In this document: positions 1-6,000 of the stretch, piece by piece | How the letters are laid out: the number at the start of each line of letters is the position of its first letter | Numbering within the stretch: position 1 is the first letter of the stretch | Position numbers: made by a program | Virus record (IMG/VR): IMGVR_UViG_2548876964_000017 | Location: 1 to 11,276 of that record | Origin: a virus | Lineage: Duplodnaviria; Heunggongvirae; Uroviricota; Caudoviricetes | DNA: 11,276 nt | Reading direction: 5' to 3' (one strand)

Positions 1-3000
1 CGGTATTGACGCCGTTACCGTCTGTCATGAAGGGCACAAAATAAACGCCCTCACTCTCCCTGTTTTTATACCCGCCGTACACGGTGTCGTACTGGGTAGC
101 GTATGTATTTTTCCAGTAATACGTCGTGTCACCACAAATCCACGGCACATCTGCAGCACTGCCACCATGGCACTGCGCGTTAAACACGGAGAGGTCAGCA
201 CGAAACTGTGCCAGCATGGCTGTAAACAGCGCAGGTTGCTGTGCGTGGGTGGCGGCGCTCATGTCAAACTCTCCCTGCATCCAGCACACCGCCAGCAACA
301 CATTTTTCGGGTTCTTCTGTAATGCAGCTTTAGTGCGCGCAATCAGGTCCTGATATAACGGTTTACCCACACCCCAGCGCGCCGAATCCTGGCTGGCCCC
401 CGTGTCCGCACTGAATGTCCCCTCAGCGCCCTGGGTGAATGCAGAACCACCACGACAGCATGGTACCAGCAGGATCCCCGCGTTATTCGGGATATACGGA
501 AGCAGTTTTTTGGCAATATATAAGCCCTGGCCGACACAGCCGTACTGCCCTTTGCTCAGGTCTGCCTTCGGATGATTCAGCGTACTCATATCCTGCACAT
601 CATGCAGGCAGTGGTCAGCCGGAATGATGTCGTTATACGTACAACTCTCTCCACCCGGAGTTACCGTGCTGCGGCGCGCCAGCTGTTTAATGCGCGGATC
701 CGGAGCATCGTAAGAATCCGGTAACGGAAGCCCTTCACCGTAGGCCATGCCGTTGGACTGTCCGGCAAGCACAACCACGTAGAACCAGTCCGGCTCAGAT
801 GAAGGGCCGACCTGTGGATCTCCTTCAATAGCCACCGCCTGCATCAGTGTGTACGGCGTAATGGCAACCGGTCCGCCGTATGGCTGCCAGCCCTCTTTCA
901 GTTTGTGTGTCAGCTTTTCCGCAAGGTCTGACGGCGACGCCGCCCTGACAACATCATAGTGTTTAAATGCCATGAATCCTCCCGGCCGGGATAATATTGT
1001 GAGTAAAATGAGGAGCGGGCTGAAGTCCGGAAGTTACAGGACAATGGCAGAAGAGAGACAACAGCCCGCAATACGAAAAAGGCCGCGCTATTGCGCAGAG
1101 TGATTACTGTCGGATATTATTCGCCAGCTGAAATATTACTTCACGTTTTGTTGTTTATTCCTTGCCGCCCGCGTCTCCCTGCGCGGGCTTTTTTTGTCCA
1201 TAAGAAAGCCCCTCCGGAGAGGGGCTGGAGAGTGGCGCTATGTGCCATTGCATGGTGCCGGGTGCCTCCCGGTGAATTCAGTACCAGCACCTGAATCCGC
1301 GATTATCCCATATACCTACTCGCTGATTGCCCCTCCGCACAGGGGGATTCACCATGCCAGTTTCTTTTAACAAACTCCCCGCAAACCAGACAACAGTCAA
1401 CCGCCTGAATTGTGAGACATTTAAAAAAAAGGCCCGCAAAAGCGAGCCAGGGAAAATAAGTGTGGCGCGTTGTACTGGATTCGAACCAGTGACCGATTGC
1501 TTAGAAGGCAATTGCTCTGTCCGGCTGAGCTAACAACGCAGGATACAGATAATGGACCGCCTTCGGGGACCCGAACTCCGCGCAACCAGCTTCGAAAGCT
1601 GGCGCTCTTTCCTGATGAGCTAATGGCGGTATGTGATGGTGGCCCTTGCTGGATTTGAACCAGCGACCTGGCGATTATGAGTCGCTCGCTCTCACCACTG
1701 AGCTAAAGGGCCGGGTCAAAAAAATAATAATCAGATGAAAATCAATAATCAAGCCCTTGCCTGGATACATATCTGTCTGGCGGGAAGCCATAATAGCGGT
1801 GAAATACAGAAATAAAGTAGGACCAGCTTGAATAACCGCATTTTTCTGCTACAGCCTGTCCATATCCATGCCGGGAACATAACATATTCACAGCAACACG
1901 CATCCGCTCTTCCAGCAACAAGCGACTGAACATGTGCCCTTCATTTTTCAGTTTTATCTTTAACAAACTCTCACTCATATGCAGGCGTAACGCAATCGCA
2001 CCAAGCGTCCAGCTTGCTGATATATCTGTCTGAATTATCGCCCTGACTTTGGCACTTATACTGGATAAACATCCACTTAAAAATAATAATATCCGTTCAT
2101 CTGATTCAAACAGCGACAGGCATGCCATCATAAGAAACATATCCGTGGTATCTCCGGAAAATCTCTGGCTGGTAATTAAAGCCTCAGCCAACGCAGGGTT
2201 GTTGGGTTCCAGTGACAGATAAAGCGGAACGTCAGTCAGATGAGTTCTTGTCAGCTTATGCTGAATTTCCAGATATTGACTTACTATGGAATGGTTTATA
2301 TCGAAAATTTTAACTTTGCCATAATGCATAAGGAAAAGCGCCCTGATGCATTTGGTGGCCAGAACGACTGAGCCGGGCTTAAGTGACAACGTATCCTTTT
2401 CAAGAAAAATATTAATTGGGGAGCAAACCATGATAACTGAACAGACAACAACCATTATAATTTTACTTTCATTAGCAATTGGTTAGTTCAATTATAGCCC
2501 CAAAAGGTAAATTATCATCAACACATAAGCAAAGGACTGACAGGTGCCGCTAACACCCACCAGCCGCCCATTTACCACAAATAAAAAAGCCTTCAGGACT
2601 GAAGGCGTCTGTAACAACCGCACTGATAGTCTGCCAGACCCGCCATAACAAGCTGGGTCAGTATTAACTGGCAGCGTTCGCGTGAAAGGTAAGTATTCTG
2701 CGCAATCTCCCCGACTGTCGCCGGTTCGGTGACGCTTAATTCATCAAACACAACTCTGGCGGTTTCTGTCATATCCTGCTGTTTCAGCATGTCTTTTTAC
2801 CCTTTCCGGTTAACGTGACACACCAATAACTCTTGCCGAAAAAGCCAGCAAGCTGAAAGACCTGTATTAATAACTACCAGCACATTTAACGCACTGCGCT
2901 ACTTTGCGGGCACAAAAAACCCGCTCAGAGGCGGGGTCAAGCTATGCGGCGAAATAACCACTCTTAACAGCATACCTGATTTTTTACGTACGTAAATGCT

Positions 3001-6000
3001 TTGCCGTGCATATTTTTCATGCAAATGTCACGTCCTGCTATTTTTCAGTCTTATAAATTTAAAACCATAGAAAAAATCAATTATGTTTTAAAAATGGATA
3101 GGTAAAGAATAACAAGTGACACAGATTCAAACCAAAATGGAAAAGGGTGGCAACCCACAAACGCCCACTCCACATCCATGACAATCCATACACAACACCA
3201 GATAACGTGGCAAATAATACAAGTAAAGCACCACCTGAATAGTGATAAAAACCAAACAACAAAGCCGCCACAATTAATGCAACCAATGGAGACGTTACTT
3301 CTGATAGCCGTGATTGAATATACCCTCTAAATAATGATTCCTCTGCCAGAGACACAAAAAACAAATTAGCCAATATAAACTCTGGCAACCACTCAGGAAA
3401 ATGAATCTCTGGCTTTAATCCACCAAAAAAAACAGCCAAAAACAGGATAAGAGGAACAGAGAGCGACAGAGCCCCCCACTTCCACAAAGACACTTCTGAT
3501 TTTACTTCTTTTTTAAACAAAGAAGATGTACACAGGACTAACAAAAATGGCACCAGCGCTTTATCAAAATTAAAATACATTGTATAGGGAGTACTTTGAG
3601 GGCCAACAGTAACAGAATTTAGCACTACAGGATTGTGAAACCCTGGCCATAGATGGAAAGATAATGCTATGGCTGATAAAACTATGCCAACTTCATATAT
3701 AGATTTAGCCCAGGCGTTATATTTCCAGTTGAACTTCAAAATAATAAAAAAAACGATTGTAGCAACAAAAAATAACACCGACCAATCAATAATATCATTA
3801 AGCACAGCCAGGACAACAGACACCGTCAACAATGAAAAAGCCACTACCTTATGCCAACTGAGAGTTGACAGTGACAGTACTAACACAATCCACATAAGCA
3901 CTCCTTTTATTTAATGATGAAGATTGATTATCAATATTTTCAATTCACCAGGCAACATTTTATCTACCTTCCACAATACATGACCATCAAAAAATAAACA
4001 TGTTAATTATAAACACAGAAAACATAACCCTCATCACTATATATCCCTACCGCATATCCATATCTAACCGGACATTCAGAGCCATAAGCATTCCTTCAAT
4101 AATACCTTCCGCTTTATAAAGCCTTTTACCAATAAGCCCATCAGAACATCTATGCTTACGTGCAAGAGCCATAAATGTCATTCCACCTACGTAATAATCC
4201 ACCAACAAATCGTGCAAATACTGATTATTCTTGTTTAATCGTGCCATACAACCACAAATTATCATGGCGTCATCATCAGAACACTGAGGACGTGATTTCA
4301 CTTTAGTCGGGATTAATCCTTTAAAACCAGCAGCTATCGAGGGCCATGTTACATCTTCATGATTATTTGCTGCCCATGCCCCCCATCGCTCAAGAACCAT
4401 CTGGATATCACGCGCCATCGTTACCACCTCTGATTTCGTAAATCTTCACGCCCAGCCGTCCACCTGGCACAGGCTGACCGCGCACAATATTGATTTCATC
4501 AAACTGCTCGTCATCAATGAGCACTTCCGCATGCGTCAGCGCATCCAGCGGTGCTTTCAGAATGTTGTCCAGGTCACGGCGGCGCTTATCCGGTGGTTCT
4601 GCAATAATTTTTATTGCCAGCCGTCCGGACAGGCTTAATTTCAGCCGCTGCTGGCGAACAATAAGCGCCACAGCCCGGCGATAACGCTCACCGGCTTTTG
4701 ATACAAAATATGTGCTGCCACGACGTCGCCAGTAGGTGTTCACCGTCGGCGGGTAAGGCAAAACAAACTCTATACGCATCAGTAACCTCTTTTACCCGAG
4801 CACGCCGGTTGCAAAAGCGTGATCAAGAAAACGAAAAATTAAATCAACCTGGGAACCATGCTTTTCTTCGAACGCCAGCGGATCCGCATGAAGCTCGTTG
4901 TGATGCTCCCGACACAGCGGTAGCGTGAAAATATCGTGGGATTTTGTTCCCATTCCACCCTGACCATGACCAATCAGATGATGAGGATCGTCCGCTGGCT
5001 TACCACAACACGCACACGGCTGTGTCTTTACCCAGCGTGTGTATTTCTCATTTACCCAGCGGCGACGTTTAGGTCGTTTCATGAAGGATTCCGGAGACTC
5101 CGGATCAACGGCAATGCTGACCACCGTCTTTTCCTGTGGTGGGTTCTGTTGCTGGTGGGTGTGAGGCGGTAGCGCAATATTTTTTGTGCGCTGCTTCAGT
5201 ATGCTGGTGGCGGTCTGTTCTCCCGGTATGATGTCGCTTTCACGGTATACGGAGCGGATTTTTTCCGCCGGTAATCCCAGAGAGCGACGCGATACTGCCT
5301 CAGGTAATGCGTCCACCACCTGATTGCAGACTGCCCACCAGGATAATTCAGCCAGCGATAATTCCCGCTCCTGCGTGCCATTCATTACATGGCGTATGAC
5401 GTCAATCATCCAGGCTGTCAGATTTTGTTGAGTAAGTTGCTCAAGTGATTCGGAGGTCTGGTCGCGCAGCTGGTTGTCGCAGTGCCAGCACAACACCATT
5501 GCGCCAGCACCGTAACTGTGAATAACGGTTTCGCTGTGATGATAATCGCCGTGTGGCCACTGGCAGGATTTCACGTGACGTAATAACCAGTCAGACAGTG
5601 CACCAGCGCCGCCAGCTGCACGAATCACCCGCTCATCGCTGAAAAATGGCAGCAGTGATTTATCTTCCGCCAGCGGCTGGCGAACAGCAGGAACCGCTCC
5701 AGATGGCAGCGCCCGCATGTTTTTCGGTTCCGGCTCCACCAGCACCCTGCCGCGATGAAAAACTGGCAATGATTCACGACCGGGCTTAAGGACCACCAGC
5801 CCGAGTTCCGGAACCAGAACAGGTCGAAGTAATACCCGCACATTACCTCCAGACGCGCTGACGGTAGCAGGCATGTGTCCGTGGCAGATGTGCACGAACA
5901 GGAAGATATACAGAAACGGTCCAGGTCAGACGATCAGCGTTCAGACTCCGCTCCACACGGACACCGCGACGCAGATACGCCTCTTGAAGCATATCTGCCT

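Follow-up and report, generated by a model that had tools for sequence, protein, structure and literature searches.

Which cargo genes of a prophage are switched on with lysis is decided by the position of the late promoter pR', and this position is the question raised by the DNA analysed here, a window of 11,276 nucleotides from an E. coli prophage in which all features lie on the minus strand. On this strand the antiterminator gene Q is followed by a CPBP/Rce1-like protease gene, a gene for a 65-residue winged-helix protein, an AraC/Psr-like regulator gene, three tRNAs, and nanS-p. According to the original prediction, the about 2.3 kb of cargo up to the tRNAs would be induced together with lysis while keeping its own promoters if the late promoter is next to Q. 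Its description of the cargo is accurate, as the Q stop codon and the first tRNA are 2,334 bp apart and three genes (CPBP, the 65-residue ORF, and the AraC-type gene) lie between them. The three terminators that it named were all recovered by the terminator scan, but the one at 1423-1448 follows the tRNAs and is not located between them and Q. The features from Q to the first late terminator are:

4047-4418, minus strand: Q antiterminator gene (123 residues from the RefSeq ATG; RefSeq annotation; Pfam PF06530, E=4.9e-52)
3896-4046, minus strand: spacer between Q and CPBP with candidate CPBP promoters
3077-3895, minus strand: CPBP/Rce1-like intramembrane glutamic endopeptidase gene (PF02517, E=1.4e-19; PHROG 13291)
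2908-2996, minus strand: putative late promoter cassette of about 90 bp, by homology to pR' of Sakai/933W-type Stx phages
2996-2991, minus strand: -35 of the cassette, TTTACG, by alignment to 933W-type and ev207 sequences
2996-2983, minus strand: 14-bp palindrome TTTACGTACGTAAA, overlapping the -35
2988-2981, minus strand: conserved CGTAAAAA within the 16-nt promoter spacer of the cassette, by alignment
2974-2969, minus strand: -10 of the cassette, TATGCT, by alignment
2962, minus strand: predicted start site A2962, transferred by homology
2914-2935, minus strand: t1, the first late terminator, +28 to +49 (hairpin 2935-2920, T-tract 2919-2914)

The Q reading frame is intact. The protein belongs to the Q21 family (PDB Q21 chains, E=7e-8), and in tblastn searches against phages it was 86% identical to its counterpart in phage ev207 and 78-79% identical to those in 933W-type Stx phages. 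When the cargo region from Q to the tRNAs (1742-4060) was used as query, matches were obtained in 2,156 genomes, only 540 of which contain the full region; the module of the 65-residue ORF was matched in most. About 540 complete E. coli genomes, the majority from EHEC serogroups (O157, O111, O145, O103, and O121), contain the full locus. In the copy of the O111 strain 11128 the first 4.8 kb are identical to the window, and holin, lysozyme, and Rz are found downstream on the same strand as the cassette. The cargo is AT-rich, with a GC content of 34-39% for CPBP and 41-44% for the AraC gene compared to 51-58% in the flanks.

The cassette was located by two approaches. A pattern search allowing up to three mismatches gave a single match in the window, at 2955-2996, with zero expected by chance, and an nhmmer profile likewise had a single significant window match (3001-2912, E=4.5e-25); Rfam contains no family for the cassette. 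The stretch 2955-2996 matches both the 933W-type sequence that overlaps the Q stop codon and a site in ev207 that precedes holin S by 180 bp. In the window, the -35 lies 1,050 bp past the stop of Q and 80 bp past the stop of CPBP. Published mapping placed a primary start at the homologous position in two Stx phages of Sakai (PMC7547250). In Sakai Sp5 the start predicted from the motif precedes the end of the tR' U-tract by exactly 258 nt, the same spacing that was published for the start from dRNA-seq and the 3' end from Term-seq (PMC7547250).

The cassette is strictly linked to Q. Among 126 cassette-bearing sequences, a biased and redundant set because the search pattern was built from three sequences, a Q21-family Q (69-100% identity) is encoded upstream on the same strand in 111, and the other 15 end at most 1,543 nt upstream and are too short to show Q. 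Throughout this set the cassette is oriented with Q and the late genes, and the gap to Q, which ranges from -13 nt to 3 kb, holds several classes of cargo. Conservation runs from about -40 to after the U-tract, and the flanks differ by cargo class. Based on these comparisons the late promoter is most likely the cassette at 2908-2996 on the minus strand, about 1 kb from Q and after CPBP, to which we assign a probability of roughly 0.78. The predicted proximity to Q thus appears to be wrong. A late promoter downstream of the cargo, which had been named beforehand as evidence against the proposal, would apply in part, with the cassette past CPBP and upstream of the 65-residue ORF and the AraC gene.

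It is very unlikely that the late promoter is instead located in the spacer between Q and CPBP, for example at the TATAAT at 4011-4006, in which case all three cargo genes would be antiterminated by Q. In favour of this placement, lambda, phage 21, and 933W have their late promoter immediately after Q, the TATAAT is perfect, and the promoter hexamers of the spacer are kept in homologues of 82-89% identity. However, the -35 is as poor as had been noted, the hexamer 17 bp upstream being ATGAGG with three of six consensus matches, and neither the pattern search with up to three mismatches nor nhmmer at maximum sensitivity revealed similarity between 3896-4046 and the cassette that is common to all related Q genes. 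A distant-mode search with 3880-4060 found no match among 50,697 phage records. The spacer co-occurs only with CPBP (572 genomes), and related Q genes without CPBP are also without the spacer, which travels with CPBP and not with Q. In addition, the Stx1d prophage of strain C311 contains Q, CPBP, the cassette, a StxS homologue, and then stx1d. This homologue was detected with 88% identity over nt 63-258 (196 nt) as positive control of a blastn search, in which the 258-nt StxS body gave no significant match to the window. The TATAAT is more plausibly part of a promoter for CPBP, and a second candidate in the spacer consists of a -35 TTGCCT at 3955-3950 and a -10 GATAAT at 3932-3927 on the minus strand.

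Alternatively, the prophage might be cryptic and the cassette decayed, the cargo being expressed from its own promoters only and Q-driven late transcription being lost. Its hexamers have eight of twelve sigma-70 consensus matches, which is under the reporting threshold of the promoter scan, and they are weaker than those of Sakai Sp5, whose -10 (TATCAT) is better than TATGCT. A clear pause element was not found in the cassette: the candidates are TATTTC at +8 to +13, in which the final T is missing, and AAGAGT at -3 to +3, and neither is a good -10-like match. Related prophage copies are rearranged (Sakai Sp4 has IS629 and inverted lysis genes), and the prophage may be defective. Decay is nevertheless unlikely given the intact Q, the identity of at least 99% that 1742-4060 retains in about 530 genomes, and the promoter core itself. 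The core of the window, TTTACGTACGTAAAAAAT..GTATGCTGTTAAGAGTGGTTA, is the commonest variant (78 of the 126 sequences) and precedes, in identical form, the lysis genes in ev207, which was deposited as a complete phage genome. Still less probable, to the point of being hardly credible, is a role of the 90-bp block as a mere recombination linker between phage modules without promoter function. Its edges do coincide with mosaic junctions, but the start mapped in the two Sakai phages, the match of the layout with the experimentally studied pR' of phage 21, and the invariable orientation with Q and the late genes all argue for a promoter.

With pR' at the cassette, the layout is an ordinary variant of a known lambdoid phage design. 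Phage 21 has a Q of the same protein family, although identity between the two proteins is only about 30%, and its annotated record has the same succession of -35, conserved spacer element, -10, start, terminator within about 50 nt, tRNAs, and late genes with holin; it also has an annotated pause element after the start site. In phage 21 the -35 lies 6 nt past the Q stop, whereas here the distance is 1,050 nt with one gene between. The Q-binding repeats of phage 21, ATTGAGCA/AATGAGCA (two direct 8-bp repeats), are absent here, and by sequence comparison only, the same position is occupied by an invariant CGTAAAAA inside the 14-bp palindrome. The pR'-StxS-tR' region of Sakai Sp5/Sp15 and 933W-type phages (Sy et al. 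2020, PMC7547250) has a homologous promoter, start region, and first hairpin. Unlike in the window, Q overlaps the -35 in these phages and has its stop codon inside the promoter, and the StxS body, the second terminator, and stx genes are absent from the window. DLP12 and ev207, which have the order Q, nmpC (ompD) porin on the opposite strand, pR', and lysis genes, contain a nearly identical cassette that is likewise distant from Q (about 1.64 kb), the interval being filled by cargo. The lysis operon of DLP12 is reported to be Q-controlled from a region upstream of essD (PMC7918800). In contrast to the opposite-strand porin, CPBP is on the same strand as Q and can be co-transcribed with it.

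By domain and motifs, the CPBP protein is a CPBP/Rce1-like glutamic endopeptidase; the EExxxR, FxxxH, and HxxxN motifs are intact in the translation (AEESLFRG, FGFYHY, and FHFGLN). As judged from the related loci, its gene occupies a variable slot between Q and pR'. Lambdoid late-operon morons (stx, bor, lom) are AT-rich, variably present, and equipped with own promoter-like sites and terminators, and the CPBP insert resembles them in its variable presence, deviant GC, own promoter (consensus match only), and terminator, which is t1 and thus common to pR'. Unlike these morons it is located on the early side of pR'. Being upstream of pR', CPBP should be independent of Q, because no terminator separates the two genes (none was found between them in the terminator scan of the window). 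A PADLOC search for defence systems was negative for CPBP and the AraC gene, and its match to the 65-residue protein was marginal (E=0.0034).

Downstream of t1 the following features are found:

2593-2790, minus strand: 65-residue winged-helix (TrmB-like) ORF, the first gene past pR' and t1 (PHROG 331, E=6e-37)
2580-2606, minus strand: t2 (hairpin 2606-2589 and T-tract), overlapping the stop codon of the 65-residue ORF
2491-2518, minus strand: promoter-like site for the AraC/Psr-like gene (ATGATA, 16 nt, TATAAT)
1742-2455, minus strand: AraC-type regulator of the prophage Psr family (PF12833 and PF00165)
1724-1752, minus strand: promoter-like site just upstream of the tRNA cluster (TTGATT, 17 nt, TATTAT; from the scan)
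1463-1712, minus strand: cluster of three tRNAs, equivalent to ileZ-argN-argO
1637-1712, minus strand: tRNA Met/Ile2 (CAT)
1553-1629, minus strand: tRNA Arg (TCG)
1463-1539, minus strand: tRNA Arg (TCT)
1423-1448, minus strand: t3, after the tRNAs (hairpin 1448-1431 and T8; fold z = -3.7)
1196-1386, minus strand: STnc100-family sRNA gene (Rfam RF02076, 138 bits compared to a gathering score of 47)
1226-1207, minus strand: hairpin of t4, which ends the STnc100-family sRNA gene (z = -2.9)
1083-1098, minus strand: t5, a weak terminator-like hairpin upstream of nanS-p (fold z = -0.6)
1-973, minus strand: 5' part of nanS-p (SASA carbohydrate esterase), running off the window start

The TrmB match of the 65-residue ORF is weak (E=0.003, below the family cut-off); the ORF is found at the same position in many lambdoid prophages including Stx2 phages and those with other Q types. 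The AraC-type regulator fits the Psr/PatE prophage family by its HTH domain, its location, and its identity to a named gene: residues 1-237 are 100% identical to ECs1087 of Sakai Sp4 (tblastn), and ecs1087 has been named psrA (PMC13502914). Psr/PatE proteins are AraC-like regulators of EHEC, and both type III secretion and gadE are under their control (PMC10877973). According to reviews, the original PsrA is encoded by Z1789 on island OI-50, whereas the window protein matches ECs1087 of Sp4. Downstream, PerC/Pch and TccP2 are encoded in 11128 and pchA in Sp4. A promoter of its own, as proposed for the cargo, can be recognised for the AraC gene as a strong promoter-like site with 10 of 12 matches, by consensus match only. 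For the tRNAs, a promoter between tR' and stx2 has been described in Sakai Sp5 (PMC7547250). The STnc100-family sRNA gene occupies the place that the stx genes have in Stx phages, and nanS-p is the first long gene of the late region. The sRNA HnrS was set aside because it is encoded in other Sakai prophages, namely Sp9, Sp10, and Sp12 (PMC13502914).

We infer from this arrangement that pR' divides the 2.3 kb of DNA from Q to the tRNAs, which do not form a single late-operon block. CPBP would probably be transcribed from its own promoter or promoters in the lysogen and, after induction, probably also when the early transcription that yields Q reads through into it; t1 would also end such transcripts arriving from Q or CPBP. 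At the cassette, RNA polymerase is expected to start near A2962 and to be stopped by t1 once the transcript is about 49 nt long, unless Q, supplied from the gene 1 kb upstream, loads there. The Q-modified polymerase would then cross t1, the 65-residue gene, t2, the psr-like gene, the tRNAs, t3, the sRNA gene, t4/t5, and nanS-p, and would go on to transcribe holin, lysozyme, and Rz in the O111 copy, which is identical. All these genes of the window downstream of pR' would thus be switched by Q, and the psr-like gene and the tRNAs, which have their own promoter-like sites, would be under dual control. Control of the cargo by the late promoter, as had been proposed, would therefore extend to the 65-residue ORF and the AraC gene, which lie downstream of pR' and t1, but not to CPBP.

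A Psr-type regulator of virulence and acid resistance would be coupled to Q, as would rare-codon tRNAs, an sRNA, and NanS-p, but not the CPBP protease. Because stx1d is preceded by the same order of Q, CPBP, and pR' in another strain, a reporter construct or PCR typing scheme that assumes a promoter right after Q would miss pR'. The correction is useful for annotation, given the roughly 540 complete E. coli genomes with this locus; the understanding of Q antitermination is unchanged by it. A further reading, which we consider possible but rather doubtful, combines two proposals: that the stretch from the end of Q to about -40 is a dedicated recombination slot in Q933/QuuD-type phages, and that the invariant palindrome TTTACG-NN-CGTAAA is the Q-binding element of this subfamily. 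If the slot existed, its cargo (CPBP, porin, ORF6N proteins, and others) would obtain lysogenic and delayed-early, Q-independent expression, unlike late-operon morons, and each exchange would rewrite the C-terminal tail of Q. If the palindrome were bound, a Q21-family protein would recognise an inverted instead of a direct repeat.

The position of t1 is conserved across the 126 related sequences. Its hairpin and U-tract are kept in 29 sequence variants, in which the loop and the distance from the start vary. The stem has only five G-C pairs with a nearly invariant core, CCCGC/GCGGG, and the minimum-energy fold at t1 contains a competing hairpin at 2924-2906. The Sakai homologue of t1 evidently passes some transcripts, which yield the 258-nt StxS. 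Over the whole window the scan counted 18 terminators compared to 10.9 +/- 3.7 in shuffled sequences, a weak excess.

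The late promoter of this prophage appears, judging from the sequence, to be displaced by about 1 kb from Q, the gene of the Q21-family late antiterminator, by an inserted cargo gene, CPBP. The observation is real and the biology is ordinary: a lambdoid late operon with cargo inside it and next to it. The genes are arranged as follows:

4792-5895, minus strand: DUF968 gene
4408-4779, minus strand: RusA gene
4047-4418, minus strand: Q
3077-3895, minus strand: CPBP/Rce1-like membrane protease (CPBP)
2593-2790, minus strand: 65-aa winged-helix ORF
1742-2455, minus strand: AraC-type regulator
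1712-1463, minus strand: tRNA-Met/Ile2(CAT), tRNA-Arg(TCG), tRNA-Arg(TCT)
from 973, past the window end, minus strand: nanS-p

The Q protein is a PF06530/Q21-family antiterminator according to Pfam, and matches the solved Q21 structures (E=7e-8). It shares 86% identity with the QuuD/DLP12-like Q of phage ev207 and 78-82% with the Q proteins of 933W-type Stx1a and Stx2a phages. Just past the CPBP stop, a cassette at 2996-2908(-) aligns with the 933W-type sequence overlapping the Q stop codon and also with a stretch of ev207 that lies 1.64 kb past the Q of that phage and precedes holin S by about 180 bp. The block common to the window, the 933W-type sequence, and ev207 is TTTACG-NN-CGTAAAAA-N6-TATNNT-GNTAAG-AGTGGTTA...hairpin-T6/7, which reads as a -35 element, a 16-nt spacer, a -10 element, and then a terminator. 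In the Sakai prophages Sp5 and Sp15, the primary start of the late promoter pR' has been mapped by dRNA-seq (Sy et al.) 258 nt upstream of the Term-seq 3' end of the late terminator tR' (PMC7547250). In Sp5 the start predicted from the motif is located exactly 258 nt ahead of the end of the tR' U-tract. Because this distance equals the published one, the motif can be equated with the mapped Sakai promoter. The elements in the window are:

2996-2991, minus strand: -35 element, transferred from Sakai by homology
2974-2969, minus strand: -10 element TATGCT, transferred by homology
2962, minus strand: predicted start A2962, transferred by homology (about 1,178,171, plus strand, in Sakai NC_002695.2)
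+28 to +43 relative to the predicted start, minus strand: hairpin of the first terminator, t1, with the U-tract extending to +49

Homology throughout suggests that the cassette is active in the window prophage. Its -35 and -10 hexamers agree with the consensus at only 8 of 12 positions, and t1 has a short stem plus a competing fold. An alternative hairpin, GCGGG-UUUUUUGUG-CCCGC at 2906-2924(-), uses the 3' arm and the U-tract of t1 and replaces the terminator stem in the minimum-energy fold.

The original prediction was conditional on a late promoter next to Q; the homologous cassette is instead found about 1 kb beyond Q, past CPBP, and the Q-CPBP spacer contains no match to it. A search with a profile of 33 unique cassettes, the window's own left out, gives a single match in the window at 3001-2912 (E=4.5e-25) and none in the spacer. 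The 150-bp spacer 3' of Q has zero matches among 50,697 phage records, and in E. coli genomes it is present only alongside CPBP (572 genomes). The displaced position is a useful correction to the earlier model. The underlying observation is confirmed, because a terminator scan recovered all three of the terminators it named and the TATAAT at 4011-4006 is present, with the poor -35 described. One of these terminators, 1423-1448, exists but was misplaced, as it is located 3' of the tRNAs and not between them and Q.

Scanning IMG/VR for exact matches to the cassette pattern gave 120 loci, which together with reference loci resulted in 126 sequences. In this set, which is redundant and was collected with a search pattern derived from three sequences, 111 of the 126 cassettes are preceded on their own strand by a Q of the Q21 family (69-100% identical), and the remaining 15 sequences end within 1,543 nt upstream, short of the Q position in the commonest class. 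The sequences sort into discrete classes by how far the -35 element lies from the Q stop, each class having a cargo of its own.

Distance from Q stop to -35 element, number of sequences, and what lies in the gap
-13 or +4 nt, n=23: empty (933W type)
about 1,640-1,657 nt, n=67: Porin_1 gene on the opposite strand (DLP12/ev207 type)
1,050 nt, n=8: CPBP (window class)
780-1,061 nt, n=11: ORF6N-domain proteins
796 nt, n=1: DnaD_N-like protein
497 nt, n=1: small Lys-rich secreted protein
3,013 nt, n=1: includes DUF1367 and a DUF1133/Q-like gene

The locus with the 3,013-nt gap (L051, IMG/VR UViG 2693429623_000005) also contains a truncated ORF6N gene. Its DUF1133 protein matches PF06530 too, and therefore a second Q-like gene lies between Q and the cassette. 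Conservation of the cassette spans from about -40 to just past the U-tract, and the flanks beyond are unrelated between the classes. At the other side of the gap, the Q proteins of the subfamily are similar until ...RL(E/D)MD and then have tails of 7 to 24 residues that differ with the downstream content (4047-4060(-) in the window, and related loci). Thus, the slot, or mosaic junction, opens inside the last Q codons. The closest precedent for a displaced pR' is the Q-nmpC-pR' layout of DLP12/ev207. The Stx1d prophage of E. coli C311 (L129, NZ_CP062204, 2143-5181) carries, in this order, Q, CPBP, a diverged cassette, a homologue of the pR'-tR' sRNA StxS (88% identical), tR', and stx1dA, and shows the same split layout of Q and pR' in a toxin-converting phage. 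Compared to the window, the initial transcribed region and the first hairpin of the C311 cassette are degenerate.

The -35 region contains a perfect 14-bp palindrome, TTTACGTACGTAAA, at 2983-2996(-), which is kept in all 126 cassette sequences because the central dinucleotide is always TA or AT. The palindrome might be bound by a protein, and for this Q subfamily it could possibly be the Q-binding element. From +2 to +17 (2946-2961(-)) the predicted late transcript could pair into a short stem, GUGG(U)...(G)CCGC, and in all the variants elsewhere (CCAC, UCAC, CUAC) the pairing is retained via G-U wobbles; this may reflect either an RNA structure or a constraint on the DNA. The architecture of the cassette is also that of pR'21 of phage 21 (annotated genome, structurally studied), which has a -35, a Q-binding element in the spacer, a -10, and the start, followed by a pause element at +2 to +8, a terminator by +50, tRNAs, and then the holin. 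Comparison with phage 21 gave no confident assignment of either a pause element or a Q-binding element in the window.

CPBP lies upstream of pR', and the terminator scan found no terminator between Q and CPBP. Therefore, CPBP would be expected to be transcribed from its own promoter or promoters, with the TATAAT and a TTGCCT-17-GATAAT site as conserved candidates. After induction it should also be transcribed by read-through of the early transcript, without need for Q. Both kinds of transcripts would stop at t1.

The 65-aa gene follows directly after pR'/t1, as it does in Stx2 phages with unrelated Q types. The AraC gene, which follows the terminator t2, is identical to Sakai Sp4 ECs1087, named psrA (PMC13502914); gadE and type III secretion are targets of the Psr regulators (PMC10877973). 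It has its own promoter-like site (10/12 matches, second-best in the window), and such a site is also present at the tRNAs. For these genes and the tRNAs, the combination of own promoters and Q read-through, as originally proposed, is a reasonable candidate model. A full-length STnc100-family sRNA at 1196-1386(-) (Rfam RF02076, 138 bits compared to a gathering score of 47) follows the tRNAs and precedes nanS-p, where Stx phages carry stx; it ends at the hairpin 1226-1207. A StxS homologue was not found in the window.

Over bases 1-4800 the window shows 100% identity with a lambdoid prophage in E. coli O111:H- 11128 and with many other EHEC genomes, O157 included, while the best complete-genome match of the whole window, to O145:H28 strains, reaches 99.3% with none better; the window is therefore a mosaic prophage. 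The tRNA cluster and the AraC gene are offset from the 11128 copy by amounts that differ by one base. A hok/sok type I toxin-antitoxin module is located at 6701-7025(-) (sok RNA RF01794, 113.5 bits, 6851-7025), and the C-terminal part of its 70-aa ORF (6701-6913(-)) looks Hok-like by eye. In the nin region, a 114-aa ORF at 6237-6581(-) has a signal peptide-like N-terminus, and the best promoter-like match of the window, 6220-6249(+), adjoins it on the opposite strand.
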